A stretch of DNA of 64,000 bases, taken from NCBI GenBank assembly GCA_913055735.1, contig CAJXKD010000001.1:1520281-1584280 (forward strand). Direction: 5' to 3'. The notes beneath the pieces were generated by a model that did not search any database, was not told the origin of the DNA, and saw only the letters and a program-made list of their open reading frames with translations. This DNA comes from an uncultured Rhodospirillales bacterium (GTDB lineage Bacteria; Pseudomonadota; Alphaproteobacteria; Rhodospirillales; UBA2165). The position numbers were made by a program, and so were the translations under genes. This document shows, one piece after another, positions 3,097-64,000 of the stretch; the first letter of the stretch is position 1, and each line of letters starts with the position of its first letter.

Positions 3097-4364
3097 TGAG
3101 CCGCCGACAAGGTATCGACGGCGCGGGCGGCATGGTTTCCCTCACCTCCGGCCGCCTGTTCGTAGACAGTGAGCACCTTCCGCGCCTGGGCCTCGCGGCT
3201 ATGGCGGGGCGCCGCCGCCAGCGCCGCTGCGGCAAGGCGCGCGCGTAACTCGCTATCGGTGGCGAACTTTAGGGCCGCCTCCGCGAGCGCGTCGGCATCT
3301 TCGGCGGCGACAACCAGGCCGGCATTCTCACCGGCAACGATCGCGCTTGCTTCACCGGCGGGGGCGGCGAGGAGGATGGGGAGACCCATGGCCATCGCTT
3401 CGAAGATCTTCGACGGAATGACCCCGGCGAAGACGGAAGAATTCTTGAGATGGACCAGGGCAACGTCGCATAGGCTCCATACCGCGGGCATGGCGCTTTT
3501 GGGTTGCGATGGCATGAAGACGATATTCGTCAGGTTTCGGCGCTTTGCTTCGGCAATAAGGTGATCGCGCTCGGCTCCGGCACCGGCAAGAAGGAAGCGG
3601 ATATTGTCCCGATCGCGAAGCTTCTCGGCGGCATCGAGGACATTGCCGAGGGCGTGTGCCATGCCGTGGGTGCCGACATATCCGATGACGAATTTGCCGG
3701 TGAGTCCCCATTTTTCGGCTAGTTCCGGATCGCGCGTTTGCGGGCTATAGCGGGACGTGTCGACCCCGTTGATGACGACCGCGATCTTGCCGGGATCGAT
3801 CCCGCGTGAGACGAGGTTTGTCTTGAAGGATTTAGTAAGGGCGATGATCGACGCGGATTGCCGGTAAAGAAACAACTCGAGCTTTTCCAGCGACCGGATC
3901 GCGATACCCCGCTTCATAGCGCCGACCGCTTCGATGGAGACCGGCCATAAATCACCAAGTTCGAAGACGAAGGGAACGCGGCGCAAGGCGCCCACCAACC
4001 ATCCCGCAACGGCGGAGAAAAATTGCGGCGATGTTGCCGTGACGATGTCGGGACGTTGCTGGGCCAGTGCCCCTATGGTGCCGGTGACGAGGAAACTGAG
4101 AAAGTCGAATGTTCGACGCGTCACGCCGCGGTTTGCGGCGATGTAGGTTTTGACCCGCACGACACGAATGCCGTCCATCTCTTCCGTTTGATACCACCGG
4201 TTCCGGTAGCCATCGAACAACTTGCCATGGGGAAAGTTCGGCGCACAGGTAACGACGGTAACCTCATGTCCCCATTTCGCCCAATAGACGGCCCGTTCAT
4301 AGACGCGGGTGGCGGCGGCATTGGTTTCCGGCGGAAAATTCTCGGTCAGGAAAAGGATTTTCAT
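3093..4364 (-). CDS. Glycosyltransferase family 4 (GT-B), WbuB-like
   Basis: 423 aa. The N-terminus MKILFLTENFPPETNAAATR and the C-terminal SKIFEAMAMGLPIL (E-x7-E region) are typical of WbuB-type GT4 enzymes. ATGA overlaps on both sides. Confidence 0.75.
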   Translation of the reverse strand: MKILFLTENFPPETNAAATRVYERAVYWAKWGHEVTVVTCAPNFPHGKLFDGYRNRWYQTEEMDGIRVVRVKTYIAANRGVTRRTFDFLSFLVTGTIGALAQQRPDIVTATSPQFFSAVAGWLVGALRRVPFVFELGDLWPVSIEAVGAMKRGIAIRSLEKLELFLYRQSASIIALTKSFKTNLVSRGIDPGKIAVVINGVDTSRYSPQTRDPELAEKWGLTGKFVIGYVGTHGMAHALGNVLDAAEKLRDRDNIRFLLAGAGAERDHLIAEAKRRNLTNIVFMPSQPKSAMPAVWSLCDVALVHLKNSSVFAGVIPSKIFEAMAMGLPILLAAPAGEASAIVAGENAGLVVAAEDADALAEAALKFATDSELRARLAAAALAAAPRHSREAQARKVLTVYEQAAGGEGNHAARAVDTLSAAQ

Positions 4365-5371
4365 GCCGTGGCTCCCTTGCGCCAGGGGCCGACGAGATAA
4401 ATCAACAGCAGGACAACCATGATGCCGGCCCCGACGAGGGCCGGCAGAGGGTCACTGATCGAAAGGGAGGCAAGGCCGATCAGCACCAGATTGCAGATGG
4501 CAATTGCCGAGGAAACCGCCGCATGGCTTTTGCCTGCCTGTACCGCGCGTTGATAGAAATGATTGCGGTGGGCTTGCCATACACGCTCACCGCGTACGGC
4601 ACGCCGGATCAGCGTAATTGTCGCATCGACTAAATAATAGAGGGGCAGGATAAGTGCCGCGGCCCATTGCCCCTCCGCGGCCAACCGCAACAAGAGCCAG
4701 CCGAGCAAGAATCCGAGGGGGATGCTGCCGATATCCCCGAGGAAGATACGCGCCGGATGCCAATTCCACTTGAGAAAACCGATGGCCGCGCCCGCCATCA
4801 CCGCGCCGGCAAGGCCGAGTTCTTGTGTCGTTGCGGTCACGCCGAAAATCAGTGCTGACCCAAGACCGATGGAAACCGTTTCGACTCCCGCGATCCCATC
4901 GATGCCGTCCATGAAATTGAATAGGTTTATGAACCAAATCCACAGCAAAAGGGCGGCGATCCGATCCAGGATGCCGGGCAACAAACCTTGAAATATGGGG
5001 GAGGATGGCGGGACGGCCGCGAGGACAAGGCCGGCGGCGGCGATATGCGCCAAAAGCCGCCATTTCGGGGCGATACCGCCGGTGTCGTCTTTCCAGGAAA
5101 TCCAGGCGAGGCCGATGGCGGCGCCGATCAAACAGACGAGTTCTGTTTGAAAGGAGTCGGGACTATTGAGCGCATAAGCAGCGATCCAGCCCAGAAATAT
5201 GATGGGAATGATCGCCCAGCCGCCGCCACGAACCGTGGGTTCTTCGTGGCTGGAGCGTTCATTCGGAACGTCCAGTATGGCCCGGTCGGCGAGCCGTTGC
5301 CGAACGAACCCGGTGGCGATGAGCGCAAGGACGGCGGAGAGCCCAAACGCGATGACGAAGCCGACGATCAT
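4361..5371 (-). CDS. Polyprenol-phosphate:HexNAc-1-phosphate transferase (WecA/WbpL/MraY superfamily), initiating enzyme
   Basis: 336 aa, hydrophobic throughout (about 10 helices). Carries the signature NLFNFMDGIDGIAG. Confidence 0.85.
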   Translation of the reverse strand: MIVGFVIAFGLSAVLALIATGFVRQRLADRAILDVPNERSSHEEPTVRGGGWAIIPIIFLGWIAAYALNSPDSFQTELVCLIGAAIGLAWISWKDDTGGIAPKWRLLAHIAAAGLVLAAVPPSSPIFQGLLPGILDRIAALLLWIWFINLFNFMDGIDGIAGVETVSIGLGSALIFGVTATTQELGLAGAVMAGAAIGFLKWNWHPARIFLGDIGSIPLGFLLGWLLLRLAAEGQWAAALILPLYYLVDATITLIRRAVRGERVWQAHRNHFYQRAVQAGKSHAAVSSAIAICNLVLIGLASLSISDPLPALVGAGIMVVLLLIYLVGPWRKGATA

Positions 5372-9260: not shown

Positions 9261-9959
9261 CTATCGCAGCCTTGTTCGAAAGATCGTCGCGATTACGCCG
9301 ATGGCGTGATGACCGCGAATTTTCTTCCCTTCAGCATAAGAGCGACTGAAATAATTGACTGGAACCTCATATATCAAATCCGCCTTGCGCACGACCAATC
9401 CTAAAATCTCCGCATGTTGGGCCCATCCTTTCACCCGGAGATCGTTTGGATCGAGTAGATCGCGCCGGTACATGAGGTAGCAGGTGTAGATGTCGGTGAA
9501 GGTGGTGTTGTTGAGCATATTGAACAACAACGTGACTATCTTGTTACCCACCCAATGCCAGAACATCGTCACCCGCGCCATTCCCAACGACCGAAACCGG
9601 CTTCCCATCACGACATCCGCGTCGAACTCGACAACGGGCTGCATCAAAAATCCATAGTCGGCTGGGTCGTATTCGAGGTCGGCATCTTGAAATAGGACAT
9701 AGTCGCCGGTCGCTTCCTGCAGCCCCGCGATAACGGCAGCTCCTTTCCCTTGGTTCTGCTTCCGATTGATGAATTTCGAATACAGATCCGGACGCGTTTC
9801 CAGCAATTCGACGGTGCGGTCAGTCGAGCCGTCGTTGATGACAATTATTTCTAGGTTAAGCCCTGCATCCTGCTGCTTTTTGACGCGGCTCAGCAGCTCA
9901 AGGACGGTGCGGTCCTCGTTATAGACGGGAACGATGACGCTAACGCTGGGAGGCGCCAT
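9261..9959 (-). CDS. Glycosyltransferase family 2, DPM1/ArnC-like polyprenol-phosphate glycosyltransferase type (no TM tail)
   Basis: 232 aa. Motifs VSVIVPVYNE, IVINDGSTDRT and FQDADLEYDP (DxD region). Confidence 0.75.
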   Translation of the reverse strand: MAPPSVSVIVPVYNEDRTVLELLSRVKKQQDAGLNLEIIVINDGSTDRTVELLETRPDLYSKFINRKQNQGKGAAVIAGLQEATGDYVLFQDADLEYDPADYGFLMQPVVEFDADVVMGSRFRSLGMARVTMFWHWVGNKIVTLLFNMLNNTTFTDIYTCYLMYRRDLLDPNDLRVKGWAQHAEILGLVVRKADLIYEVPVNYFSRSYAEGKKIRGHHAIGVIATIFRTRLR

Positions 9960-43180: not shown

Positions 43181-45055
43181 CTAGCTGTCCGCTACTTCCC
43201 CGGCGTGTTCGGCGCCGGTACCGCCCAAGTTTGCGCGTTCCGCCCAGGAATTGAATTCGGGCAAGTCCGTTTTAAGCTGATCAAACGAACCTTCGCCGAC
43301 CAATCTGCCATCCTTCAGAAAAACCAGTTTGTCACAGCTTCTTAAAGTGCTCAGGCGATGTGCGACGATAACCAGGGTTTTGTCGCCGGCCAGATTCCGG
43401 AGCGTCTTAGTGATGCGGGATTCGGTTTCGACATCAAGGGAGGATGTTGCTTCGTCAAGCACCAGTATCTCGGAGTTGAAATACAAAGCCCTGGCAATCG
43501 CGACACGTTGACGTTGTCCGCCCGACAGTTGCACGCCGGCCTCCCCAACCACCGTTTCGACCCCATTCGGCAATGAAGCGACAAAATCCGAAAGCTCCGC
43601 ACGCTGAATTGCGGCTGCCTGGGCCTGATCACTAATTTCTTCATCCGAAAGGCCGAACGCGATGTTACGCCGTAACGTGTCGTCCAACAGAGTGACGTTC
43701 TGTGGAACGTATCCCATGGACCGGCGTATGGCCGCTTCTTCTCCCGGCCGCGGTTGGCCATCAAACAAAATTTCGCCGGATTGCGGTTTAATGAGACCCA
43801 GCAGAAGTTGGATTAAGGTGCTCTTGCCGGCGCCTGAGGGGCCGACGATGCCGACGCTTGCACCTGCAGGAATGTCGAAGGAGATATCGGTAATGCCCGA
43901 ATTTCTGCTTTCGTAATGATAGCTTACGTTGGCGATGACGATGTTCTCTTGGAGTGTCGACGGTCGAACGACTTGTTGCGGATCTCGATCGGTTCGTATG
44001 GTGGTCTCAGGCTCGAACCAATCTCCAAAAAGCTCCATATCCTTTTGTATTTGGGCAAACGCGGGTATGGCGATTCGGGCGTCATTCAAGGTTGCCACGG
44101 TGCGTTGTACGGTCGGCATGAGCCTCAGCATCGAGGCGGCAAAGAGCGCTATAAACGGTACAATATTGTCACCAGTCCAACCCAGATACGCGATCAGTAC
44201 GAAACCGCAGACGGAGATAACACCCACGACCTCCAGTATTTGCTGCGGAACCTGGCGATAGGTTTGATTGAGGTACGTGAGCCGAGCGATATCGTTCGCC
44301 GCCGCTCGAAACCGTCGGATGAAATACCGGTATTGATCCAAAACCTTGATGTCGATAATCGCCGACAACGCCTCCAACTGTGAGAAATTGTAGGCGCGAT
44401 TAGCCTCCTGGTTTATGGCGCCCAGTTCGCGCATTGGTGCCGCCGAAAACCACCAGAAACCGAGAGCGCCCACCCCGATTACGACGATCGCGATTGCCGC
44501 CGCCAGCGGATTTGCGAACACCAGCATGCCGGCGATTGCGAGTGCCAGAAAAAGGTCCGATACGAGCCCGCCAATCGGTTGAATGATCTTGTTGTACCAG
44601 TTGGGCACTGACGTGTTCAGATTACGCAGCAATGTTGCGGCATTCTGCTCGAAGTGGAAGCTTGCGGGTGCTTCGAGATAGGTGCGGAATAGCTGTTCGG
44701 TGATTCGTGTTCGATCGAGATTGAAAACTTTTCCGACCCAATACGTTACGCCGACACTTACAACGCTCTTGAAGATGATAAGACCCGCCAACACGATGCT
44801 GAGGGCCGCGGCGAGCTGTGCATTTGTATAGCCTTCTACCTGATCGACCGGTATCCATTGGGAGAAGTTGTCGACCCGCGTTCCACCGGCTAGCAGACCG
44901 ACGATCGGAAAAATGAGTCCTAGGCTGACGAGGTCCAGCACCCGAAGCGATGACAATGCAACAATGGAGGCAAGCACCAGCCTTCGCGTGCGTTTTCCGG
45001 CTAGGCGAAAGCTCTGAAAAAATATTCGGCTAAGAGCCATTCTTTGGGTGATCAT
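43181..45055 (-). CDS. Fused TMD-NBD ABC exporter (MsbA/PglK/ExsA-like half transporter)
   Basis: 624 aa. An N-terminal six-helix-type hydrophobic half, Walker A GPSGAGKSTL, signature LSGGQRQRVAIARAL, and Walker B ILVLDEATSSLD. Confidence 0.85.
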   Translation of the reverse strand: MITQRMALSRIFFQSFRLAGKRTRRLVLASIVALSSLRVLDLVSLGLIFPIVGLLAGGTRVDNFSQWIPVDQVEGYTNAQLAAALSIVLAGLIIFKSVVSVGVTYWVGKVFNLDRTRITEQLFRTYLEAPASFHFEQNAATLLRNLNTSVPNWYNKIIQPIGGLVSDLFLALAIAGMLVFANPLAAAIAIVVIGVGALGFWWFSAAPMRELGAINQEANRAYNFSQLEALSAIIDIKVLDQYRYFIRRFRAAANDIARLTYLNQTYRQVPQQILEVVGVISVCGFVLIAYLGWTGDNIVPFIALFAASMLRLMPTVQRTVATLNDARIAIPAFAQIQKDMELFGDWFEPETTIRTDRDPQQVVRPSTLQENIVIANVSYHYESRNSGITDISFDIPAGASVGIVGPSGAGKSTLIQLLLGLIKPQSGEILFDGQPRPGEEAAIRRSMGYVPQNVTLLDDTLRRNIAFGLSDEEISDQAQAAAIQRAELSDFVASLPNGVETVVGEAGVQLSGGQRQRVAIARALYFNSEILVLDEATSSLDVETESRITKTLRNLAGDKTLVIVAHRLSTLRSCDKLVFLKDGRLVGEGSFDQLKTDLPEFNSWAERANLGGTGAEHAGEVADS

Positions 45056-52256: not shown

Positions 52257-52261
52257 TCCGA

Positions 52262-52795
52262 TCAAAGGCGTTCCATCGAACGCAAGACGTTCGATAGGTA
52301 TTCCTGCTGGGATTTCTTATCGTCTTCTTCGGACGGTGCCCATTCCGCATAGATGGTTTCTTGACGGCGGAACGGGCCATTTGTCACTTCGTGGAAGATG
52401 ACGAACTCCGTTTCTGGAATAATCATGTGATATAGGGGCTTGGATAGCCGATAGAAAAGGTTCTTTCCCGTTCCGGCGGCGCCCAGATCGAGCGTTTGAA
52501 GTATTTGTCCGTTGTCGTCGAACAGGATCAAAAGCAGCTCGCCTTCAATCATATGAAAGGATTCGCTCTTGTTCATATGTTTGTGCGGCTGACAGTACAT
52601 TCCCTTTTTATGGACGATGACCATCTCATGAAGCGGATCGTCCGTTGTCTTATGGGCGTTTATTCTCACCCGGTTGCGCGCGTTCGTGCTCGCGAGTTTT
52701 TTTAGAGCCTCTATCTGGGCCGGCGAAATATAGGTGACCGGGTTTTCGGAGACGAAAACCTCTTCATTCAGACGTTTAAAGGCGTCGAGACTCAT
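52262..52795 (-). CDS. WbuC-like cupin-fold protein
   Basis: 177 aa. RINAHKTTDDPLHEMVIVHKKGMYCQPHKH is a His-rich cupin core, as in WbuC-family proteins of O-antigen loci. Confidence 0.55.
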   Translation of the reverse strand: MSLDAFKRLNEEVFVSENPVTYISPAQIEALKKLASTNARNRVRINAHKTTDDPLHEMVIVHKKGMYCQPHKHMNKSESFHMIEGELLLILFDDNGQILQTLDLGAAGTGKNLFYRLSKPLYHMIIPETEFVIFHEVTNGPFRRQETIYAEWAPSEEDDKKSQQEYLSNVLRSMERL

Positions 52796-52802
52796 AATCC
52801 GA

Positions 52803-54059
52803 TTACCGTACCAAATCGGGATGGCGCTTTAGGAACGATAGCGCGATTTGCGTTTCGCCATTCCAGGCGCGCCCTTCCAGGGCAATATTCCAGAAAGTGT
52901 CGATCATCTTACGTTCCTCGCCGTCGAGAACGCGCCGATCTTCCAAAATCTCTTCCATCTCGACGGCCAGATCGAGGATTTCCTCCGGCGTATTCTCAAT
53001 AAGCTCGATACCCGCGTCGGAGAACTGTTTCGTGAACACGAACTGCCCAGCCCCGGACCCAACTATCTCCGAGAATGTCATGAACCGTTTTTGCTCCTTG
53101 GACCAGTACCGTTTGGGAATCCACAAATCCGTGGCCCGTGCCTTGAAGACATTTAATGCTTGTAATGGCGCTACATTACAGTTCGCGACTGGCGTGTGAA
53201 ACAGCCGGGGGAGATCAAGTACGCCGGACGCAGTTGCCACGCAAAATTTTGAACGAAAAGCGAGATAAATATCGCGTTCTTCGGTTCGGTGACGACTAGG
53301 ATAATCGACAATTGCCGGATCGGCCGTCTCCAGACTTTCGGAAACATGGGCTCCCGCTCGAACGACACCCATCCCTTTGGACGCAAATCGCTGCGCCATG
53401 GGAAGCATGTTTTGGATGCTGGAATCCCGATAGTCGTGATAGGACCAATCTTTACTTGGGCTAATATGATCCAAATGCGCCGCATCGCGGTTGGCAAACA
53501 GAATGACCTGCTTTTCCGGCTCGATTCCTAGGCTTGTGAGCCATTTGTCGCCGCGTTCGATGGTTTCCTTGTCGAGAACAATTGGTGGCGGGGCCTCGAG
53601 AGTAACACCCTCCCGGTCCAAGGAACTTACGGCCAAAGAATGGCGCTCCCAGTTGGGCAGTTGTCGGCTGGCCGCGTCGACATACTCGCTCAGTTGAAAG
53701 AACCGCATTTTCTTGCGGACGAGGTGGTACAGACAATTATTGACCGGCTGCGTGGTTCGGAAAAAAACGTCGATGTATCCTGCGTGTTTTCCGGACGCCC
53801 GTTCACAAAGGTAGGTATGGCATGCTCCTGCGAAATGGCCGATACGGCCCGTATCAATCCGGCAAATCCTGATGGAGATCCACGGCCACGTGATCCGCAT
53901 CAGAACGGCGGCCGGAAATCCAATCAATCCGACGAGAATCGACGAAAGGAGCCGCCGGAGCGCCAGCCGCGGATTGGTCTGCGCGGTTCGAAGCTTGCGC
54001 ACGAACACGGCAGGTAAGTTGCGAAGAGCCACGGGTTCCTTGTTGACGGCTGCAGTCAT
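52803..54059 (-). CDS. Putative glycosyltransferase resembling the 'TIGR04372 family' type
   Basis: 418 aa from the ATG at 54059; the longer track ORF overlaps the transketolase gene. The blocks TGRIGHFAG, FANRDAAHL, HDYRDSSI and VDYPS...DIYL match my recollection of that family. This needs HMM confirmation. Confidence 0.4.
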   Translation of the reverse strand: MTAAVNKEPVALRNLPAVFVRKLRTAQTNPRLALRRLLSSILVGLIGFPAAVLMRITWPWISIRICRIDTGRIGHFAGACHTYLCERASGKHAGYIDVFFRTTQPVNNCLYHLVRKKMRFFQLSEYVDAASRQLPNWERHSLAVSSLDREGVTLEAPPPIVLDKETIERGDKWLTSLGIEPEKQVILFANRDAAHLDHISPSKDWSYHDYRDSSIQNMLPMAQRFASKGMGVVRAGAHVSESLETADPAIVDYPSRHRTEERDIYLAFRSKFCVATASGVLDLPRLFHTPVANCNVAPLQALNVFKARATDLWIPKRYWSKEQKRFMTFSEIVGSGAGQFVFTKQFSDAGIELIENTPEEILDLAVEMEEILEDRRVLDGEERKMIDTFWNIALEGRAWNGETQIALSFLKRHPDLVR

Positions 54060-54097
54060 TCCAAAGGTTGATCGGGTGTACGCGCCGATGACCACAT

Positions 54098-55015: not shown

Positions 55016-55836
55016 GATGAAACCTCCGCGAGTTCGTCAATAGCTTGCCGGTATTCCTCCGGTGTAGGCGATCGATAATGCCATACCGGAACGTTTTCCA
55101 TGTAGGAGACCCCTCGTCCTTTGATCGTATTGCCGATAAGCATGAAGGGTTTGCCGCCTTTCCGTTCCGTAATCGCCTTGAACACCGCCTCGGCATCGTG
55201 ACCATTCACTTCAACCGCTTCCCACCCAAACGCTTCAACCTTTTCGCGGATCGGGTAAAAGGCGGGATGCGTCTCGGAAGTGCGGCCAAAGGACTGGAAA
55301 CCATTGTGGTCAAGGAGCGCAATCAGATTGTCGGTTTTCAGGTTGGCCGCCATCATCATGGCTTCCCAGGTCGACCCCTCCTGGAATTCGCCGTCGCTTA
55401 GTACTGCGAAAACCTTTCCTGTCTTGCGATGAATATACTTTTCCGCATAGGCCATTCCCGTTGCCAATGCCATCCCATGACCCAGCGATCCCGTCGACGC
55501 TTCTATGCCGGGAACGCCATAATCGGGATGGCAACCGAGCCGCCCCTCCGGCTTGCAGTAAAGTGCGATATCTTCCTCGGTGAGTATCCCGAGATCTTCG
55601 AGGATCACATATTGAACGAGGCAGCCGTGGCCCTTGGACATGATAAATCGATCTTTGTCTTCCGCTGCGCCATCTTGCCGCATAAGCGCGTGATAGACAC
55701 AATCGACCATTTCCATCGCCGAGAAGGCGGCCGCAGCATGCAACGCTGTAACCTTCTGGGATATATCAAGAATGCGCTTGCGATACATTTTGCACCGCTT
55801 CTGCGCAGCGTTTACGTCAAAACTATTCTGAAGCAA
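55012..55836 (-). CDS. Transketolase, N-terminal (ThDP pyrophosphate-binding) subunit
   Basis: 274 aa (TTG at 55836; an alternative ATG lies at 55788). Motifs SKGHGCLVQY, GSLGHGMALATGMA and VLSDGEFQEGSTWEA...LLDHNG. Confidence 0.85.
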   Translation of the reverse strand: MLQNSFDVNAAQKRCKMYRKRILDISQKVTALHAAAAFSAMEMVDCVYHALMRQDGAAEDKDRFIMSKGHGCLVQYVILEDLGILTEEDIALYCKPEGRLGCHPDYGVPGIEASTGSLGHGMALATGMAYAEKYIHRKTGKVFAVLSDGEFQEGSTWEAMMMAANLKTDNLIALLDHNGFQSFGRTSETHPAFYPIREKVEAFGWEAVEVNGHDAEAVFKAITERKGGKPFMLIGNTIKGRGVSYMENVPVWHYRSPTPEEYRQAIDELAEVSS

Positions 55837-55859
55837 TGTTTTCAGCCGTCTTTGAGTGG

Positions 55860-56510
55860 TCAGTCAATTATCGTCCAGTACCAGTCACCGGTATAACCGG
55901 CTTCGTCAAATAGTTTTATCCATCCGTCCGGGTAATCGTGGAACATTGCCGTAAGCACCCAACTCTCGAAAATTTCCTTTTGCTCCGGCGTTCGGTAGCT
56001 GTCTACTTGAACGAATCCGCGCCCAGGACTTAGGCGCTCGAATTCGCGTAGCGCCTGCGCGCACCGGTCGCGAGGCAAGTTATGGATGGTATTGATTGAT
56101 AGAACTGCGTCGAATGTTCCATCGGGGAAGGGGAGTTCATCGGCGCTGCCCAGGTGCAGACGTCCCACCGTTTCCCGCTCGCAGTTCATCAAGGCGTATT
56201 TTGAAATATCGACGCCGTACGCATCGATTCCGATTGCCAATAAGTCTTTGACGAGGAAACCTTTGCCGCACCCGACATCCAATACCTTGGCACCTGGCTC
56301 GAGCCCAAAATGTTCGACGATATCGGTAGCTACAGGCTGCCAGCGGCCGTCATAATAGTACCCGCCATATCCGTATTCGCGTGGTCCGTCGAAATAGACC
56401 TCGCCATATTCCCTTGAAATACGCACATGTTCGTCGGATTTAGCCGTTTCGCGTGCTTTGACATTGCGTTTGCCCTTGGGCAATGAGCGCAGGAGATTAA
56501 CCTCAACCAT
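55860..56510 (-). CDS. Class I SAM-dependent methyltransferase
   Basis: 216 aa. Motif I AKVLDVGCGKGFL. Confidence 0.75.
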   Translation of the reverse strand: MVEVNLLRSLPKGKRNVKARETAKSDEHVRISREYGEVYFDGPREYGYGGYYYDGRWQPVATDIVEHFGLEPGAKVLDVGCGKGFLVKDLLAIGIDAYGVDISKYALMNCERETVGRLHLGSADELPFPDGTFDAVLSINTIHNLPRDRCAQALREFERLSPGRGFVQVDSYRTPEQKEIFESWVLTAMFHDYPDGWIKLFDEAGYTGDWYWTIID

Positions 56511-56516
56511 TGTTAC

Positions 56517-57398
56517 CTAACCTAGTGCCTCATTCTGAATTTTGGCTAAGCCCTCGGCCAACTCCAAATAGCGAAAATCGGGAAAGGCCTCTTGTGTTGC
56601 TTGATTATTGAATGCCCTAAAGCCGTTGTGGGGCATCGGTCCGGTGCGAGGTGTGCCTTTTACCGTCACTGAAGGTTCCGATAAATCCGCGATCATCTCG
56701 GCGATCTTCCTAAAGGATATGACGTGGCCCGTAACCGCATTCAGCACGCCTTGGCTTCTATGCCAGGCAATAAGCCTGATCAACTCTGCCACATCGTTAA
56801 CATGTACGTGGTCGCGACGTTCCTCGCCTTCGCCAAACAAAACAATATCCTCGCCTTGTTCCGCAAGTCGTCGGAATTTGTTGGGACCGTAACCATTGTG
56901 CGGATCTTCGGCTCCATAAATCAAAGTAGGGCGCAAGATCGCGAGCGGGCAGTCCACGGCGTCCTTTAGCATGACCTCGCGCGTAAGGTGCATAATGCCA
57001 TGTAAGGAACTTGGCTCGGCACAAGAAGACTCGTCCAAAAGTTCCATGCTGTCTCTATAGACAGCATCTGAGCTGACATACATCACGTGCGCTGGGGATG
57101 AGCGTTCAAGCGCGCCGGAGACCGCCTCCATCATCTTGATGTTGCTAACTAGCATTGACGTATTCTTGCAAGGTGCTTCGGCAGCGATGATCAACACGGT
57201 ATCATCTGGCTCAATAGACTCCGAAAGGCGATCGCCGGCCCCTTGCGCAAGAAGGTCGATTTCTTGGCGACCAAGCGCAAGGACCGGCGTTCCTTCGCCA
57301 TCGAACGCTGTTCGTGCAGCTTTTCCGACAAAGCCGGCCGCGCCCAGTATGACAACTCTCGTGGGTCGGCGAAGGGGCCTGTTTAAGTGCTCAAGCAT
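56517..57398 (-). CDS. NAD-dependent sugar epimerase/dehydratase/reductase (SDR)
   Basis: 293 aa. Motif RVVILGAAGFVGKAA. 8-nt overlap with the upstream gene. Confidence 0.65.
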   Translation of the reverse strand: MLEHLNRPLRRPTRVVILGAAGFVGKAARTAFDGEGTPVLALGRQEIDLLAQGAGDRLSESIEPDDTVLIIAAEAPCKNTSMLVSNIKMMEAVSGALERSSPAHVMYVSSDAVYRDSMELLDESSCAEPSSLHGIMHLTREVMLKDAVDCPLAILRPTLIYGAEDPHNGYGPNKFRRLAEQGEDIVLFGEGEERRDHVHVNDVAELIRLIAWHRSQGVLNAVTGHVISFRKIAEMIADLSEPSVTVKGTPRTGPMPHNGFRAFNNQATQEAFPDFRYLELAEGLAKIQNEALG

Positions 57399-58695
57399 GT
57401 TGTTTTCGTGCAGTCGCGTCGATTTTTGATGGTGGTTTGCCGAGCGTAAAATGATCCAGTCCGGCGTCGATTAATTTTCCGGACTGCCATATACCGTATG
57501 GATCTATGACTGTCCGACCCCGCATGCGTTGGGCCAAATCGTGGGGGTCGATTTCTCGGTAAGCTGGCCACGGCGTCATCACCGCAACGGCATCCGTATT
57601 TTCGCAAGCTTCCAAGGGGTCGTTCGTGACATCGCAGGAAATATCAGCTTCTTCTGCGGTCACGATGGGATCGTGCGCTTTGACGTTGCATTTCTCTAGA
57701 TTCTTTAACAGGCTCAAAGCGGGGGAGTTCTTTGTGCTGTGTGTGTTCTCTTTGTAGGCGAGGCCCAGAATGCCGACGTCGGGATTGCAGTTCTCGTTCA
57801 GAACCTCGCGCTTCAGCGTTTCCCAAACCCAATCGCGCCGTCGCTGGCTATTGACGAGCCAGGCCTCAATGAGACTGCCGTCGGTGTCGTGCCTTTTCGC
57901 TAAGGTAGCTACCGTCGCGAGGTCGCGCTCCAGATTGCCCCCGGCCAGTCCTAATCCCGGTTTGAGATAACTGAATTGCCCGATCCGGCGGTCGAGTTTC
58001 AAGGCCGGAACGATCTCTGACCAATCGGCTTCAATCTGTTCGCAAATTTCCGCCATCATGTTGGCGACGCTGACCGAAGCAACCAGGCACATATTGATCG
58101 AGATTTTCGCCAGTTCGGCACTCTCATAACGCATTGGTAAAATGGGGCATTCGAACGCCGATAGAAAAGCTTCTAACCTTGGATCGATCGGTTCGTGGGG
58201 ATTGCCGCAACCGACGATAATCCGTTCGGGTTTGAGTGCCCTAGTTATGGCTTGGCCGAATACCAGGGTCTCGACTTGATAGTATAAACGTGTAGGCGAA
58301 CAGCCGATGCCACGCGTGAAACCCGGCGGCACTTGGCAGAGAATGACCAGCAAAGCATCCTCACTGGCGTTGTCTTCGATCAAACGGAACATTCGTTCAA
58401 TCGTGCGTAAATCTCCTTTGCCGGAATCATCTGTCGGCACGTCTATCGACAGATACACGACGTCGCAGCGGCTTAAGTCGGTCGCATCGTTGGTAAAAGT
58501 GATGCGGGTGCGATTTGCCATTATGGTTTCGCTGAGGTCGGGTTCGCTGATGTGAAACCGGCCCGCCTTGAGGTCTTCGACGAGTTTCGGATCGTCATGA
58601 AAGCCGATCACGTCGAAGCCGCGTGCTGCAGCAGCGGCGGCAGAGCATAGACCCAAATGCGTCATTCCTGCGAAAGCAACAACGGGTCTGTTCAT
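57391..58695 (-). CDS. Nucleotide-sugar 6-dehydrogenase (UDP-glucose/GDP-mannose dehydrogenase family)
   Basis: MNRPVVAFAGMTHLGL from the ATG at 58695, which gives an ATGA overlap with the upstream stop, plus GLAYKENTHSTKNSPA. Confidence 0.8.
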   Translation of the reverse strand: MNRPVVAFAGMTHLGLCSAAAAAARGFDVIGFHDDPKLVEDLKAGRFHISEPDLSETIMANRTRITFTNDATDLSRCDVVYLSIDVPTDDSGKGDLRTIERMFRLIEDNASEDALLVILCQVPPGFTRGIGCSPTRLYYQVETLVFGQAITRALKPERIIVGCGNPHEPIDPRLEAFLSAFECPILPMRYESAELAKISINMCLVASVSVANMMAEICEQIEADWSEIVPALKLDRRIGQFSYLKPGLGLAGGNLERDLATVATLAKRHDTDGSLIEAWLVNSQRRRDWVWETLKREVLNENCNPDVGILGLAYKENTHSTKNSPALSLLKNLEKCNVKAHDPIVTAEEADISCDVTNDPLEACENTDAVAVMTPWPAYREIDPHDLAQRMRGRTVIDPYGIWQSGKLIDAGLDHFTLGKPPSKIDATARKQHA

Positions 58696-59657
58696 TGACA
58701 ACCCTTTTTCTCAGTCGTGCCGGTTAGTCCGGTTTGTCTTGCCAATGCGTTCAGCTTCCGACTGAGCCACAAGTCGTTGTCAAGTGTCGTTCCCGTCCCC
58801 TTTCTGCAAAGCTCAACGAAATGTACATATTCGGTCTCCCAAGTGGGATCCGTTTGTACGAGGCATACGGATTCTTCGGGCGGACGTCCGCTCGGAAGAA
58901 TTCTCGTCCGTCGTGTGAAAGTGCTCGGTCCCCATTTGCACAGACTGTCAATATGCGCGCTGCCATTCTCTGCGTAAATGTCGCAGGTGAAGTGATTGCG
59001 CCAACTGAGCATCGACATCTCGAGTTGGATTGCGGGATAACCTTCACCGGTAACGACGATATGATCGAATGCCCGGTTTTCGTGTCGATGGGCGCCTTGG
59101 ATACGGAAATCGACATTGAAACCGTCGCCGAACCAAAATCGCAGTGTATCCAGCAGGTGACTGCCAAGATCCGTAAGGACGCCGGCGCCTGTGTCGCGCC
59201 AGGCACTTTCACGTACCAAGCGGGCGGTACCATTCCCATAGAACATTCGCAGCGAGTAGATCTTTCCCAAGTCGCCGCTCGCAATGAGATCGCGCATTCT
59301 CACGAAATGAGGCTCAAACCTGTGATTGTACGCCGTGTAGCAAACGACATTGTTACGTTGGGCAAGCCTCGATAAGTCGCTAATTTCTTGCTCGTCGGAA
59401 CTAATGATCGGCTTTTCGACAAGCACATGCTTCCCGTTGCCAATAAGAAAGGAGAGCATGGCCAGTTTTTCGCCATCCGGCACACACAGCAATGCCGCGT
59501 CGTAGTCCGTCGATGGCACGTCGTAGAGGCTTTTGTAGGTGGCGCTATCAATTGCCGGGTCTACGGTCGCGACGATGTCGCTGCCGGCGACGCTCATCCT
59601 TTTCATCCCCTGCACACCCAATCCCACGATGACGATTCGTAACGATTTGGAATTCAT
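58692..59657 (-). CDS. Gfo/Idh/MocA family sugar oxidoreductase
   Basis: 321 aa. Motifs LRIVIVGLGVQG and HVLVEKP. Confidence 0.65.
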   Translation of the reverse strand: MNSKSLRIVIVGLGVQGMKRMSVAGSDIVATVDPAIDSATYKSLYDVPSTDYDAALLCVPDGEKLAMLSFLIGNGKHVLVEKPIISSDEQEISDLSRLAQRNNVVCYTAYNHRFEPHFVRMRDLIASGDLGKIYSLRMFYGNGTARLVRESAWRDTGAGVLTDLGSHLLDTLRFWFGDGFNVDFRIQGAHRHENRAFDHIVVTGEGYPAIQLEMSMLSWRNHFTCDIYAENGSAHIDSLCKWGPSTFTRRTRILPSGRPPEESVCLVQTDPTWETEYVHFVELCRKGTGTTLDNDLWLSRKLNALARQTGLTGTTEKKGCQ

Positions 59658-59664
59658 GACAGAG

Positions 59665-61218
59665 TTAGGCTCCGTAACCCGCCGTTTTTTCGATCTGATT
59701 GATACGACTCAGCACGTCTGCGGGTTTAACCGGAATATTGCCGTCATATTCGCATTCGCACGCGGCTGCGAACGACCCCAATATTGCCGCGATAACCGCG
59801 TTCTTGGTCGCCAACATGGATAGCGTGGCGTAGGCTAAAAGTGCGTCGCCTGCCCCAACCGCATCGACGACGGTTCGCGCGAAACTATCTATCGAAAAAT
59901 ACGTGACACCGTCTTCTTCGCTCGACGGAAAGGTCGCGAATACGCCGCGGTCCCCCAGTTTTAGGATGAGCAATCGGCATCCTGTCTCTCCCATTAGTGA
60001 ACCGGCAAGGCTGCCGACCGTCGAGTCCTGATCTGCGAGCGCAAACCGCGCTTCACGTTCGTTCGGTGTAATCAGATCGAAATCCTTGAACTCAGTGATA
60101 TTGCCCCATCTGCTCGCGACCTGACTATCGGCGACCTTATAGACGTCTGCCGGAATTGCGTCGGTTAAGACGGGTACGGTAAGCTGATTGAAAATTCCAT
60201 GGCGGAAATCGCTGAATACCACCGCGTCCGATTTTGTATTTTTCAAAGTCTCGCTCAGTTCCTCCAAAATCGTATCCGAGATGGACCGATTGTCGAGCGT
60301 ATCTACTTTGAGCAGCCGATATCCGCTAGCGATTATCGCGTTCTTGTTTGTTGTCGGCCGAGTTTGATCAATGATCGCTTTGCAGTCTATCCCCGCTTCC
60401 GTCAGGCCTTTTACGACGAAGTCTGCGTAGCGGTCCTTACCGAGTACAGTCGAGAACACGACCTCCGCACCTGCGGCGCGCATATGCTGGCAGACAATTC
60501 CGGCGCCGCCAATATAGTCGTCCTGCCCTAGGTATCGAACGCTAAACGTGGGTGTTTTGGTCTGGCCACCGATTAGAGACGTACGAGTGTAGCTGTCTAC
60601 GATGGTGTCGCCGAGAACATGGACCTTGAATCCCTTCATCTGATCGACGGCCTTTCTGAGGTCGTCAAAAGAAAGGCCATTTGAATGCATTAGGGACAAG
60701 AGCTTCTCGATTTGAAGAGCCGGCGGTGCAAGGTCGATCAGCTTTGAAGAGGAGTATACGACGTCCCCTGGCGTGAAAATCATCTCGCCGCCGTATCCCT
60801 CGACTAAATCCGCCTCTTCTTGCGTGGCAGGTGGAAGTCCGCCCCCCATATATTCGAAGCCTTTTGCGAAATAGTCCGGCTGCAAATAGTTTATGTTTTC
60901 TAGGGGTTTGGCATTGTGATCGATGATCACGTAGTCGACCATTTCGAACGCAGCAATGTTCAAGGCACGCAATCGTTCCGGCACATGTGGCCGATAGGTC
61001 CCTTTCTTAATATGCTTGTCGGCCGTGATGCTGGCAATCAGGATATCGGCTTTCGTCTTGGCGTAGGCTAAGTGGCGCACATGGCCGGGGTGCACGACGT
61101 CGAATACGCCATGACACATGATGACCTTTTTTTCACGCGGAAAGCCGCCAATGACTTTTTTCAGATCCTCACGATCGCGGAGTTTGAAGCTGTATTTTTC
61201 GAAGAATTCCGTGGTCAC
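59665..61218 (-). CDS. Bifunctional sugar-phosphate nucleotidyltransferase + PfkB sugar kinase (HldE/RfaE-like with inverted domain order)
   Basis: 517 aa with GTG start. The N-terminal CHGVFDVVHPGHVRHL...ITADKHIKKG..RP resembles RfaE domain II. The C-terminal VHVLGDTIVDSY...GGAGIV...DAVGAGDALLA resembles the PfkB/RfaE domain I kinase. First gene of the long operon. Confidence 0.7.
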   Translation of the reverse strand: MTTEFFEKYSFKLRDREDLKKVIGGFPREKKVIMCHGVFDVVHPGHVRHLAYAKTKADILIASITADKHIKKGTYRPHVPERLRALNIAAFEMVDYVIIDHNAKPLENINYLQPDYFAKGFEYMGGGLPPATQEEADLVEGYGGEMIFTPGDVVYSSSKLIDLAPPALQIEKLLSLMHSNGLSFDDLRKAVDQMKGFKVHVLGDTIVDSYTRTSLIGGQTKTPTFSVRYLGQDDYIGGAGIVCQHMRAAGAEVVFSTVLGKDRYADFVVKGLTEAGIDCKAIIDQTRPTTNKNAIIASGYRLLKVDTLDNRSISDTILEELSETLKNTKSDAVVFSDFRHGIFNQLTVPVLTDAIPADVYKVADSQVASRWGNITEFKDFDLITPNEREARFALADQDSTVGSLAGSLMGETGCRLLILKLGDRGVFATFPSSEEDGVTYFSIDSFARTVVDAVGAGDALLAYATLSMLATKNAVIAAILGSFAAACECEYDGNIPVKPADVLSRINQIEKTAGYGA

Positions 61219-61605
61219 GCGGCAAACCTATTCGACGATGTGGCAGACGATTTCATTGAGGGCGTGTCGTCACAATAGATGTGACGCAGAATAGCCAGTA
61301 GAGAAAAAGTGAACAATGGAACAAGAACCTCAGATCGATTCGATGGCGCTGGACAGCGAGGCGTGCTGTATGCGCGGTTCGGAAGAAAAGACAATATGGA
61401 TTTTTGGTTGGATAAAATCGTGATGCGAAGGGGCAAGTAGTCTTCAAGATTCGATTTGGCCACGCGATCCCACGTGACTGATTTTCAAAACGAAAGTTCC
61501 CCCCATAGGCCAATGCTGTGACATTGCTAGTGATTCGATCAATGGATATACCTGAGTAGAGTTCCCCGAACCATCGTGTGATTAAGGTTAACTTTAGGTC
61601 ATCGA
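61219..61605. promoter_or_regulatory. 387-nt divergent control region (largest non-coding stretch in the window)
   Basis: Lies between the start of the 37-gene minus-strand train (61218) and the plus-strand membrane-protein gene (61606). Locally AT-richer, and contains the repeated octamer listed separately. Confidence 0.45.
61338..61539 (+). repeat. Three direct copies of GATTCGAT (61338-61345, 61448-61455, 61532-61539) plus an inverted 7/8 copy ATCGAAT at 61601-61607 overlapping the ATG at 61606
   Basis: Read directly from the sequence. The spacings are 110 and 84 nt. This is a candidate operator/regulator-binding motif. Confidence 0.5.
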
Positions 61606-63507
61606 ATGACGAATCCGATTCCGGCCAGAACGTATTTTATCTACGCAGCAATGGTGCTTGTTACGGCGACTATATTTCTCCTGAGACACCATGAAATTCA
61701 CGGCGAAAATTACTACTACTGGTTCTTTTCAAAGGCCTTTCTGGAAACGGGGCGTTTTCCTGTTTTTGACCGAAGCCCGATAACGGCCCTTTACTTGGCG
61801 CCGTTTGCGGCATTCGGCTTTCCCGTTGGCGTTACGGCAGAGTTTGTTTTTCGTTCTTTTGTGGTCGGTGCCGGCCTGTTCGTATTTCTTCGGTTACTGG
61901 TCGGTCCCACAATTGCCGTGTTCGGCGCTCTTCTTTGGCTACCGTATTTGGAGGATGCGGCACCCATGGGCCAAGGACTCGGTTTGGTATGCGTTTTGTT
62001 TGCCGTCTGGATCAGGGTTTGTCATCCCAATGTCCGGCTCTCGACCTTTTATGCCTTGCTCGTTTTGGCATACATGTTCCGCCTTGATTTCGCCGCGCTA
62101 ATCCTCCTGTTTGCGATATTTGATGCCGTCAATTTGTTCCTCCGGCGTGGACACCTGAACAATATCCTTGAGAGTTGTCGTCCCCGTCTATCGGACTGGC
62201 CTGTTGTTCTTGTTGTTGGATTGGTAGTTTGGTTCCTTGTCGCACAGTGGGATTCCCCATGGAACAATGCTTATGGACAGCCCGTTCCGTGGCTGCCTGT
62301 CGACAACCCAAAAAGTCTCGGCCAAGCGAATTTCATCCTGCTTCTGAACAACTGGGCGATCGCGCAGGCTGATATCCTGCCACCCGACTACGATATCTAT
62401 TTCACTCATGAAACATTGCTCGGTGGCTACAAGAACGTGTGGGGCATCGTCGTCCACAATGGCCCTCTTGTCGCTGCCCTCATCGATAAGAGCATCATTG
62501 AGTTGATCAAGGGGTGGGTTTGGATGACGTCCTTGCCGCGCGCGTACCTTTTCCCAAACCTGAGCATACTGAGTCACTTTACGGTTCTTCTCGTTATTTT
62601 CGGCGCCGCTTTCAGTAAGTGTGCCGACAGTCGTTCGCTCAAAAGCCTCTTGGCGATCTTCGTTCTTGGCCTGATTGCATTGAAGGTGCCGCAAATCTTC
62701 GGCGGTGGCGGATCCCTTCGACACTTCGGTGGAACGGTTCCGGTATTTTTGATGGCGGCTCTCGGCGTTGCGGCGGCTATAAGCCGAGTCCTGGACAGGG
62801 ATGAAAAAATCGATGCGTGGCTGCTTGTCGGCCTGCTTCTGATTAGCGGTTTCTATTTGATGGATCGCGTTCTCGCTTTCTTCGATGGGGCGGTGTCTTT
62901 TCCGGCGGTCCAAATGGGGCTTCTGTTGACGGTCCTTATCGCGATGTTGGTTGTTCGCTGGGGGCCCGATGTTTTGAGGCGCCTAAGCAGGCGTTGTGGC
63001 GCCCTGATTTCGGTCGTCTCCATTCTTGTTTTCGCGACGCCACACCTCACTTGGGGCCCCATATTTCGGGACTTGGCTCACGATATATACAATGGAAGTT
63101 TTTCGATAAATGAGTTGCGCGAAGGGGAAAGATCACCGCGGAGAATTGCAAAAACTGCGCTTCCGTTGATAAAAAATTGTGAAGGCATCCTTACGACAGA
63201 TGCGTTGTTCTTCGCTGCCTTTACGCCGCTTCCGATCGACAAGTTCCATTCCAGCTTTGAAATACCACCCTTCGGAAGCTTCGCAACGGGCGAACTCGGA
63301 AAACTAGACCCTGCTACCATCGACTGTCTTTTAATTCCGTCCTACCTCGAGAAAACCAAGGCAAATGCCATCAATCTGCAACGACGGTACCGCGAGTATA
63401 TATTGCCTTATGCGCGCCATCTGAAATCACTGGGAGCCCGAAGCTACAAGTTGCCCGATTACGGCGAAGTGATTGTCTTGAACGGACAGGCCCCGTCACC
63501 GGACTAA
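61606..63507 (+). CDS. Polytopic membrane protein, GT-C-fold-like glycosyltransferase (ArnT/PMT-like) candidate
   Basis: 633 aa with ATG start. About 13-14 hydrophobic helices plus a roughly 145-aa soluble C-terminal domain. The first loop GENYYYWFFSKAFLETGRFPV aligns by eye with the ArnT loop [21 protein letters not shown]. Confidence 0.4.
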   Translation: MTNPIPARTYFIYAAMVLVTATIFLLRHHEIHGENYYYWFFSKAFLETGRFPVFDRSPITALYLAPFAAFGFPVGVTAEFVFRSFVVGAGLFVFLRLLVGPTIAVFGALLWLPYLEDAAPMGQGLGLVCVLFAVWIRVCHPNVRLSTFYALLVLAYMFRLDFAALILLFAIFDAVNLFLRRGHLNNILESCRPRLSDWPVVLVVGLVVWFLVAQWDSPWNNAYGQPVPWLPVDNPKSLGQANFILLLNNWAIAQADILPPDYDIYFTHETLLGGYKNVWGIVVHNGPLVAALIDKSIIELIKGWVWMTSLPRAYLFPNLSILSHFTVLLVIFGAAFSKCADSRSLKSLLAIFVLGLIALKVPQIFGGGGSLRHFGGTVPVFLMAALGVAAAISRVLDRDEKIDAWLLVGLLLISGFYLMDRVLAFFDGAVSFPAVQMGLLLTVLIAMLVVRWGPDVLRRLSRRCGALISVVSILVFATPHLTWGPIFRDLAHDIYNGSFSINELREGERSPRRIAKTALPLIKNCEGILTTDALFFAAFTPLPIDKFHSSFEIPPFGSFATGELGKLDPATIDCLLIPSYLEKTKANAINLQRRYREYILPYARHLKSLGARSYKLPDYGEVIVLNGQAPSPD

Positions 63508-63906
63508 ATCGTCGAACGTTCTTTTCTCACGGATGTAGTCCGCTTCCGAATAGTGGTCCGAGGCCAGAACCAAGCAGATGCTATCCGCAATCATCGGGGT
63601 AATGACAAGCCATGACATGGGCGGAACGTAAAGTCCACGGTCCCTGGTATCGAGCAGAAACGAATCGATGCGCCCGCTAAACTCCAAATCGACGCGAAAC
63701 GAACCCGCCAGACAAATTAGGAACTGCTCCAGCTCCTTGTGTGCATGGCCGCCGCGTTCGATATCTGGAAGGCAGTCATATATATAGAAGACCCGCTTGA
63801 TTTCGAATGGAACGTGATCTCCGCATTCGGCCACACCCAGGGTGCCGCGCACCGGATCCCGGATTTCTGAAAGGGACACGAGCCGTGGTTCGAGAGTCGA
63901 CATCAT
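63496..63906 (-). CDS. FdtA/WxcM-like cupin (NDP-4-keto-6-deoxyhexose 3,4-ketoisomerase family)
   Basis: 136 aa from the ATG at 63906. Motifs RGTLGVAE, PFEIKRVFYIYD, ERGGHAHKELEQFLICLAGS and ASDHYSEADYIRE. 12-nt convergent overlap with the plus-strand gene. Confidence 0.8.
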   Translation of the reverse strand: MMSTLEPRLVSLSEIRDPVRGTLGVAECGDHVPFEIKRVFYIYDCLPDIERGGHAHKELEQFLICLAGSFRVDLEFSGRIDSFLLDTRDRGLYVPPMSWLVITPMIADSICLVLASDHYSEADYIREKRTFDDLVR

Positions 63907-64000
63907 TTGAATTCGTTCTCGGCTTCCAGGTCGTTCAACAGACGTCCCGTCAGGACGAGCCGCGCGCATAGGAAGTTGAACGGAACGACGAAAAACAATA
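63903..64000 (-). CDS. 3' end of an upstream minus-strand gene running off the right edge (product unknown, hydrophobic C-terminus)
   Basis: My hand translation gives an open frame from the window edge, ...LFFVVPFNFLCARLVLTGRLLNDLEAENEFK*. It ends in a TGA that forms an ATGA overlap with the FdtA-like start. It is too short for the ORF track. Confidence 0.35.
   Translation of the reverse strand, partial: LFFVVPFNFLCARLVLTGRLLNDLEAENEFK

Follow-up and report, generated by a model that had tools for sequence, protein, structure and literature searches.

A 633-residue membrane protein from an uncultured Rhodospirillales glycan locus is probably a GT-C-fold transferase of a three-component glycosylation system

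Which step of glycan assembly could be carried out by a polytopic protein of 633 amino acids (aa) that resembles no described family in sequence and is encoded by the sole large gene on the + strand in its part of a huge glycan locus? We addressed this question for a 64,000-nucleotide stretch, hereafter the window, of contig CAJXKD010000001.1 (assembly GCA_913055735.1) from an uncultured Rhodospirillales bacterium. An earlier note on this DNA, made from the sequence alone, had reported the divergently transcribed open reading frame (ORF), and we find it at the same position with an ATG start. It had also proposed that the product is a GT-C enzyme using a polyprenol-phosphate (polyprenol-P) donor on the periplasmic face, and not a Wzy or Wzx protein, a proposal that the fold, hidden Markov model (HMM), topology and gene-context evidence presented below supports. 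More precisely, we consider it likely that the protein is the periplasm-facing GT-C-fold transferase of a three-component glycosylation system (Gtr/Arn-type, with a synthase, a flippase and a GT-C).

61606..63507, + strand: GT-C gene, encoding the 633-aa polytopic product (ORF listing, ATG start)

Family, predicted fold and topology

The fold class, topology, conservation and gene association of this protein were all computed. Apart from the protein, a word-indexed search of 5.8 billion proteins retrieved a single metagenomic relative with 50% identity, whether it was run with one sequence or with a 79-sequence profile. An exhaustive HMMER search of 1.84 billion representatives, using a two-sequence profile, gave 251 clusters (50% identity) at E<=1e-3, including 107 at E<=1e-30, and many of these were full length (560-680 aa). 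Conservation in 251 clusters shows that the ORF is a genuine gene, not a reading frame open by chance. The resulting family alignment has 90 sequences that are 19-49% identical to the target. The named relatives come from metagenome-assembled genomes (MAGs) of Omnitrophota, of Planctomycetales and of an unclassified bacterium. The window has no paralogue of the protein among its other ~600-aa ORFs.

AlphaFold produced an unusable model from two sequences only (pLDDT 36), and the 90-sequence alignment was used instead, giving a pLDDT of 91.4 and a pTM of 0.92, with all five models at 89 or above in pLDDT. The model has a GT-C core: when it was compared with the Protein Data Bank (PDB) using Foldseek, all 17 matches with a probability above 0.8 were GT-C enzymes. 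The top match is AglB (7e9s_A, E 7.3e-4, probability 1.00), and the others include a further AglB (3wak), human STT3 (6s7t_A, 8b6l_I), yeast STT3, PglB (3rce_A with a TM-score of 0.36, 6gxc_A, 5ogl_A), EmbB (6x0o), PIG-U (8imx_U), ALG3 (9s6r_A) and Pmt4 (9e61). Two more GT-C enzymes match at lower probability, PimE (9dm5, 0.75) and DPY19 (7zlh_A, 0.60), while transporters of the major facilitator superfamily, pyrophosphatases and G-protein-coupled receptors reach 0.13 or lower. A separate fold search of BFVD for phage GtrC-type proteins gave no phage Gtr match. Its only good viral match was A0A514K2W1, an uncharacterised protein of 326 aa (probability 1.00, TM-score 0.63 normalised to the viral protein), which hints that a Nitrosopumilus spindle-shaped virus may encode a GT-C-like membrane protein.

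GT-C enzymes are polytopic, with about 7-14 transmembrane (TM) helices (PMC11127046; PMC10920833). Wzy polymerases, O-antigen ligases and SEDS proteins also have this fold (GT-C_B, clans GT-C1 to GT-C3) and use oligosaccharides linked to undecaprenyl pyrophosphate (Und-PP), whereas in GT-C_A the families GT53, GT83, GT39 and GT57 use lipid-P-monosaccharides and GT66 uses lipid-PP-oligosaccharides (PMC10920833). Hence the choice between GT-C and Wzy or ligase, as first framed, is partly a false dichotomy, and the evidence favours the GT-C_A type within it. Because the fold matches include members of GT66, GT53 and GT39, we regard the placement as GT-C_A-like, and the best description of the protein is an unclassified GT-C family with GT-C_A-like architecture.

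This placement bears on whether the protein could be a Wzy-type polymerase or a WaaL-type O-antigen ligase, i.e. an enzyme of GT-C_B or related clans acting on an Und-PP-oligosaccharide. The window has no other Wzy or WaaL candidate, and Pfam scans of 79 individual members (E<=1) gave faint, sub-threshold matches to EpsG in three of them (best 8e-4), next to Alg9-like Glyco_transf_22 in one and DUF6057 in two. We nevertheless find this identity very unlikely and rejected it on HMM, fold and context grounds. The Wzy_C and O-antigen-ligase HMMs matched neither the target (E<=10) nor the 79 relatives (E<=1), and the same was true of the YfhO, PMT, PMT_2 and STT3 HMMs; no transporter match was seen either. 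The top 50 Foldseek matches listed include no structure of Wzy, WaaL or SEDS type, although WaaL and SEDS structures are available in the PDB (for WaaL, 7TPG; PMC10920833). Finally, the ABC exporter of the locus suggests a Wzy-independent pathway, and the family shows a conserved linkage to synthases of sugars carried by undecaprenyl phosphate (Und-P), described in the next section.

The architecture follows that of other GT-C enzymes. A hydropathy scan of the protein gives 11 strong TM segments, a ~105-aa hydrophilic gap past residue 213 and a hydrophilic C-terminal stretch of ~150 aa. The AlphaFold model has 13 TM helices (TM1 being residues 7-26), in line with the about 13-14 noted before. 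The long loop noticed at that stage is real, at 104 aa for a stated length of roughly 110, but by our count it follows TM7 and not helix 8. Similarly, the soluble C-terminal domain exists and is about 137 aa long (residues 497-633), shorter than the roughly 145 aa first given. Three regions outside the membrane core matter for what follows:

61684..61824, + strand: predicted extracytoplasmic loop 1, residues 27-73, with two juxtamembrane helices (model and alignment)
62242..62553, + strand: predicted large periplasmic loop, residues 213-316 (104 aa), helical, after TM7 (model)
63094..63504, + strand: predicted C-terminal periplasmic alpha/beta domain, residues 497-633, about 134-137 aa (model)

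To orient the protein, the helices of the model were mapped onto the family alignment and read with the positive-inside rule. The predicted cytoplasmic loops have on average 15.9 lysines and arginines, versus 3.1 for the short periplasmic loops, and the inside count exceeds the outside count in 90/90 sequences. Because of this excess, the N-terminus is predicted to lie inside, which would leave loop 1, the loop 213-316 and the C-terminal domain with the C-terminus outside. The extracytoplasmic position expected of loop 1 is thus predicted in every one of the 90 members. A loop after TM1 that is predicted to face outside and has a conserved acidic residue is a feature of the superfamily, as are the 13 TM helices and the structural match to solved GT-Cs.

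Loop 1 is formed in the model by short helices at 35-48 and 58-68, between TM1 and TM2. Residues 32-54, the string quoted in the earlier note, read HGENYYYWFFSKAFLETGRFPVF. E34 (codon 61705-61707) is found in 87/90 members and W39 in all 90, being the only invariant residue of the alignment; R56, P58 and Y63 are also conserved. We propose loop 1 as the catalytic and donor-binding loop. The large loop has near-invariant N220, N221, P231, D263 and Y265. The C-terminal domain, proposed to bind the acceptor, has an EIPPFG motif and two cysteines, C525 and C574, conserved in 99% of members; they form a putative disulfide, and their conservation fits an oxidising compartment. In total, some 30 residues are near-invariant, including E79, R137, Y149, R159, D173, R372, P554-P555-F556 and R594.

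The distribution of these residues speaks to the possibility that the protein is non-catalytic, for example a transporter or flippase of a lipid-linked sugar. In favour of such a role, catalysis by the protein is so far only predicted, and a dedicated small flippase goes undetected in most loci of the relatives. Yet transporter folds stay at a Foldseek probability of 0.13 or lower, the same genome has a GtrA, and the near-invariant polar residues (E34, R56, E79, R159, N220, D263 and R372) cluster on the predicted periplasmic face, like the active sites of GT-Cs. In the model E79 is at the outer end of TM2, and R56, R159 and R372 all lie on the outer face. We give a non-catalytic role almost no credence.

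Gene neighbourhood and candidate donor synthases

For the use of a polyprenol-P donor, the support is indirect and comes from the genes near the relatives. We gathered 52 loci with relatives, called their ORFs and searched these with phmmer; de-duplication at 90% identity left 35 groups, and context was counted in the 19 groups whose flanks add up to at least 6 kb. In a search with a 12-sequence alignment, 3 loci were in genome contigs and 41 in metagenomes. A GtrB/ArnC/DPM1-type GT2 lies within 6 kb in 16 of the 19 groups. It is of the full-length type, with an alignment to GtrB or ArnC that reaches the C-terminal TM region, in 13 groups, and a short soluble DPM1-like GT2 is the only one present in 3. 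The 3 remaining groups have neither type, one of them being a truncated gene at a contig end. The synthase and the relative may be very close: 4 bp apart in L026 and L028, 8 bp in L046 and 71 bp in L013. Since the chromosome of E. coli K-12 has about two GtrB/ArnC-type genes in 4.6 Mb, we infer, from this comparison of gene densities, that a co-occurrence of 84% within 6 kb is far above chance.

This linkage helps to decide on the closest structural neighbours of the protein. After flipping by the PglK/MsbA-like ABC transporter, a GT66-type oligosaccharyltransferase would move an entire Und-PP-glycan in one step to a protein or lipid. AglB, STT3 and PglB are the closest fold matches, 13 TM helices with a C-terminal periplasmic domain are PglB-like, and the window combines a WecA-like initiator with a PglK/MsbA-like exporter while lacking any Wzx-, Wzy- or WaaL-like polytopic ORF. 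But the family is linked to synthases of Und-P-monosaccharides (GtrB/ArnC/DPM1 type), which oligosaccharyltransferases do not need, its C-terminal domain has just about 134-137 aa, and it gives no STT3 Pfam match. Oligosaccharyltransferase identity was rejected on motif grounds. GT66 enzymes carry WWDxG in their C-terminal domain and an acidic DxD or ExD in loop 1; here W[WYF]DxG was found in 0/90 members, and 1/90 has a DxD among its first 80 aa, i.e. in the region of loop 1. We therefore judge this role distinctly unlikely and keep the transfer of a single sugar from a monophosphate carrier as the preferred reading.

Three further genes of the window recur beside relatives elsewhere:

52803..54059, - strand: TIGR04372-family glycosyltransferase (no Pfam), recurring beside family members
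about 52262-52795, - strand: WbuC-type cupin (DUF6016), recurring beside relatives
54098-55836, - strand: split transketolase, recurring beside relatives

The TIGR04372 gene is found in 8/19 groups and is directly adjacent to the relative in L008, L027 and L040. Together with the WbuC-type cupin and the split transketolase, it accompanies GT-C relatives in many unrelated metagenome loci. This suggests that the GT-C family is part of a larger conserved module with these genes. Different candidate lipid-sugar flippases lie directly upstream of two distant relatives, namely a 131-aa EamA/ArnE-like protein (L010:9599-9994) and a 323-aa LPG_synthase_TM protein (L004:1864-2835). The flippase component appears to be interchangeable between these systems.

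The window ends 493 bp past the GT-C gene. A 195-kb metagenomic contig (L002), which is 100% identical to positions 51606-64000 of the window (12,395 bp) and carries the same GT-C gene, shows the rest of the convergent operon beyond this end. The relevant genes are the following:

63496..63906, - strand: FdtA-type sugar 3,4-ketoisomerase (Pfam FdtA 1.2e-40), last gene of the convergent downstream operon
63903-63998, - strand: last 31 codons of a small flippase-like gene of the GtrA family (PF04138), truncated where the window stops (64000)
L002:14746-15657, - strand: GtrB/ArnC-type GT2, 303 aa, 2844 bp from the GT-C gene and beyond the window
Operon genes 1-5, in the direction of the operon: RmlB-like dehydratase, RmlA-like nucleotidyltransferase, DegT aminotransferase, hexapeptide acyltransferase, GH130-like protein
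Operon genes 6-10: the 303-aa GT2, FemAB-like Acetyltransf_6, methyltransferase, GtrA (PF04138), FdtA
9261..9959, - strand: soluble DPM1/ArnC-like GT2, 232 aa (best PDB match Pyrococcus DPMS 5mlz 4e-20, then ArnC 3e-16)

The FdtA and GT-C genes converge and overlap by 12 bp at the GT-C stop, and FdtA is likewise a neighbour of the relatives in L001 (50% identity) and L040 (about 30%). The GtrA gene is 396 bp from the GT-C stop, and its fragment in the window translates to the C-terminus of the complete GtrA of L002 (L002:12298-12738). Nearly the whole of the 303-aa GT2, residues 2-299, aligns to the Synechocystis GtrB 5ekp (4e-40) and to ArnC structures (2.5e-24), and the pair of C-terminal TM helices seen in that family lies at about 231 and 261. 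All three predicted parts of a Gtr/Arn-type system are present, i.e. a synthase, a flippase candidate and the GT-C, and the synthase and flippase are embedded in what its gene content identifies as a complete dTDP-3-amino-3,6-dideoxyhexose (Fdt/Qdt-type) pathway. A second contig (L012, JGI12445J12830_1000606) has a 100%-identical GT-C gene and a downstream operon that lacks the 350-aa methyltransferase (L002:12749-13801), so that the GtrB-like gene is 1803 bp from the GT-C gene, versus 2844 bp in L002. The two contigs differ by strain-level variation in sugar-tailoring genes.

The donor synthase had previously been sought in the GT2 at 9261-9959. Its DPM1-like character is borne out by the PDB matches listed above, and GT2s of this type do pair with relatives of the GT-C; as a synthase for this system, it is less likely than the GtrB-like GT2 2.8 kb downstream. 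The most parsimonious donor synthase is this full-length enzyme, over a 232-aa GT2 that is 52 kb away. We keep the latter as a second, more distant candidate polyprenol-P-sugar synthase because short DPM1-like GT2s homologous to it adjoin family members elsewhere, at 2 bp in L020 and at 6 bp in L027.

The best NCBIfam matches of the 303-aa GT2 are PgfS (3.6e-44, below the equivalog cut-off) and ArnC. The first of these raises the possibility of the same three-component chemistry with a protein acceptor, the GT-C being an O-glycosyltransferase like PMT, PgfM1 or PgtC2 that acts on periplasmic or surface proteins. The targets of the GtrB/PgtC2 and PgfS/PgfM1 pairs are protein regions rich in Ser/Thr (PMC11092751), and Pmt4 and DPY19 are among the fold matches. 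Against this, no candidate acceptor protein is encoded nearby, all the relatives examined are within polysaccharide or sugar-nucleotide loci, and there is no PMT or YfhO Pfam match. A protein acceptor seems unlikely to us, if still worth bearing in mind.

Proposed role and the surrounding locus

The three-component framework starts with a synthase that attaches a sugar to undecaprenyl phosphate; the product is then flipped by a small transporter and used by a GT-C, whose active site follows TM1 at the outer face, to glycosylate an acceptor in the periplasm (PMC11127046). From this framework we infer the donor lipid, the sugar, the acceptor and the roles of individual residues. In the cytoplasm, the downstream operon would make a dTDP-3-amino-3,6-dideoxyhexose derivative by means of RmlA, RmlB, FdtA, DegT and the hexapeptide acyltransferase, and the FemAB-like and methyltransferase genes would tailor this sugar. 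The GtrB/ArnC-type GT2 would load a sugar, most likely the product of the operon (or another one), onto undecaprenyl phosphate, and GtrA would move the lipid-linked sugar to the outer leaflet. There, the 633-aa protein may bind the Und-P-sugar in a membrane groove, with R56, R159 and R372 as candidate phosphate ligands and E34 of loop 1, possibly with E79, as the candidate base or metal ligand. A single sugar would then be transferred to an acceptor held by the loop 213-316 and the disulfide-containing C-terminal domain, the candidate acceptor-binding elements being N220, N221, D263 and Y265 of the large loop together with that domain.

Several results weigh against this proposal. Some of them concern sequence: Pfam-A and NCBIfam scans of the protein gave no match even at E<=10, which leaves it with no sequence link to characterised GT-C families, and the 90-sequence profile found nothing among all PDB sequences (the best match, at E 0.56, is meaningless). 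The comparison of the family profile with E. coli ArnT by hhalign is not significant (probability 0.09%, E 0.57), in an analysis where the ArnT homologues found were all at least 76% identical, so that the ArnT side lacked a deep profile. Hence the similarity to the ArnT loop-1 motif that had been noticed by eye carries no statistical weight, though the best hhalign path reproduces the same alignment. As for structure, the Foldseek E-values are marginal, only one being at or below 1e-3, and the global TM-scores are 0.3-0.36; because of this, the result is evidence for the fold class and not for family membership. Furthermore, the closest structural matches are oligosaccharyltransferases and not monosaccharide transferases. 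The gene context adds two points: a GtrA or EamA/ArnE-like small protein, i.e. a detectable small flippase, occurs in just 5/19 groups, and the GT-C gene is on the opposite strand from the operon with the synthase and the flippase, therefore co-transcription is excluded.

The acceptor is most likely the polysaccharide of the 60-kb locus, exported by the MsbA/PglK-like ABC transporter. The window is one huge glycan locus, nearly all on the - strand, in which two features frame this route:

4361..5371, - strand: WecA-like polyprenol-phosphate hexosamine-1-phosphate transferase (Glycos_transf_4), the initiating enzyme by context
43181..45055, - strand: MsbA/PglK-like fused ABC exporter, by context the likely route of the acceptor glycan to the periplasm

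Only three other proteins encoded in the window are polytopic like the GT-C protein: the ABC exporter, the WecA-like enzyme and a membrane dehydratase resembling PglF/WbpM. None of the polytopic ORFs in the 64 kb is Wzx-, Wzy- or WaaL-like, and export appears to rely on the one fused ABC transporter. The locus also encodes GT1 and GT2 enzymes, a UDP-glucose dehydrogenase, a nonulosonic-acid set (PseB-like, DegT, NeuB and CMP-transferases), C- and O-methyltransferases (with several C-methyltransferases), a sulfotransferase, a carbamoyltransferase and two radical-SAM enzymes, one B12-binding and one SPASM-type. This gene set implies an unusually decorated glycan. Four ORFs of the - strand have no or only a faint Pfam match: 15925-17754 (609 aa), 25798-27690 (630 aa), 29132-31003 (623 aa) and 36793-37833 (346 aa). 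The true start of the 630-aa ORF is probably later, because the ORF overlaps a DUF4910 gene (27512-28858) by 179 bp.

On its upstream side, the GT-C gene faces a divergent gene:

59665-61218, - strand: HldE-like kinase/nucleotidyltransferase gene, upstream of and divergent from the GT-C gene
61219..61605, no strand: divergent intergenic region between these two genes, 387 bp, presumed promoter region

The HldE-like protein has the reverse domain order of HldE, with the cytidylyl/adenylyltransferase domain N-terminal and the PfkB kinase domain C-terminal. A promoter scan found no sigma-70-type consensus in the 387 bp, and in a terminator scan every terminator-like match fell within coding sequence.

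Relation to known systems and significance

The proposed system has its nearest counterparts in the GtrA/GtrB/Gtr* (GtrC) systems for O-antigen glucosylation of Shigella and Salmonella and in the galactose-adding equivalent of Klebsiella, with which it shares a full-length GtrB-type synthase (4e-40 to 5ekp), a small membrane protein of the GtrA family and a polytopic GT-C whose active site is predicted to be periplasmic. Gtr* enzymes lack sequence similarity to other families (PMC11127046), and so does the GT-C described here. It differs from the O-antigen systems in that its predicted donor is probably a dTDP-derived 3-amino-3,6-dideoxyhexose derivative, judging from the operon, and not glucose or galactose. 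Moreover, its gene is encoded convergently and not in a gtrABC operon, its product has a conserved C-terminal domain with a putative disulfide, and it is chromosomal, in a 60-kb glycan locus, and not phage-borne.

The modification of lipid A with 4-amino-4-deoxy-L-arabinose by ArnT (GT83), ArnC and ArnE/F follows an analogous logic, with an ArnC-type synthase, a small flippase and a 13-TM GT-C that has a C-terminal periplasmic domain. The loop-1 acidic residue followed by an aromatic-rich helix is also like ArnT. Membership of ArnT/GT83 was rejected all the same: there is no PMT_2 or PMT Pfam match, the hhalign probability is the one given above, and no ArnT structure is among the top 50 Foldseek matches listed. 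With AglB, PglB and STT3 (GT66), the nearest structural matches, the protein has in common the 13 TM helices and a C-terminal extracytoplasmic domain. It differs from them in having no WWDxG, loop-1 DxD or STT3 HMM match, in a far smaller C-terminal domain, and in a context that points to single sugars linked to a monophosphate.

Another parallel is ORF12 of Citrobacter youngae, the founder of GT136 in a three-component pentofuranose system, likewise a GT-C of new sequence that was recognised by fold prediction and gene context. ORF12 acts on a glycan of the ABC-transporter pathway and has an extra periplasmic C-terminal domain (PMC11127046). Its system, which we liken to ours by description only, differs in its synthase, which depends on phosphoribosyl pyrophosphate and is not GtrB-like, in its MATE flippase and in its extra domain, a carbohydrate-binding module. 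In Firmicutes, YfhO/CsbB/GtcA, PgfM1/PgfS and PgtC2/GtrB also combine a GtrB-type synthase with a GT-C acting outside the membrane, and in these Gram-positives the acceptors are teichoic acids or proteins rich in Ser/Thr (PMC11092751). Our protein differs from these in having no YfhO Pfam match.

The mechanism class is well established and no concept is overturned here; the novelty is a family for which the databases have no model. The family is unclassified in Pfam and NCBIfam and, if characterised, would rank as a new GT family. We can also advance, as a possible but doubtful extension, that it is a new CAZy-level GT-C family of uncultured lineages (Omnitrophota, Planctomycetales and others) that transfers from undecaprenyl phosphate extensively modified deoxy-amino sugars made via dTDP, for example an N-acylated 3-amino-3,6-dideoxyhexose, within the module of TIGR04372, WbuC cupin and split transketolase. 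To our knowledge, this class of donor has not been reported for three-component systems, and an Und-P-linked 3-amino-3,6-dideoxyhexose donor, if true, would be unusual.

Few glycosyltransferases are as difficult to annotate as the GT-Cs, because similarity in sequence between their families is almost absent, and CAZy still gains new families, GT136 among them, from single enzymes. With 251 clusters and no Pfam or NCBIfam model, the members of the present family are currently without family annotation. Large glycan loci of uncultured bacteria can be annotated with a usable rule that combines a GT-C fold, a loop-1 E-x4-W, a C-terminal domain with EIPPFG and linkage to a GT2 of the GtrB/ArnC/DPM1 type. 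Glycoengineering with rare deoxy-amino sugars also gains a candidate enzyme in this protein, and recognising its relatives flags the decoration of surface glycans after their export in these organisms.

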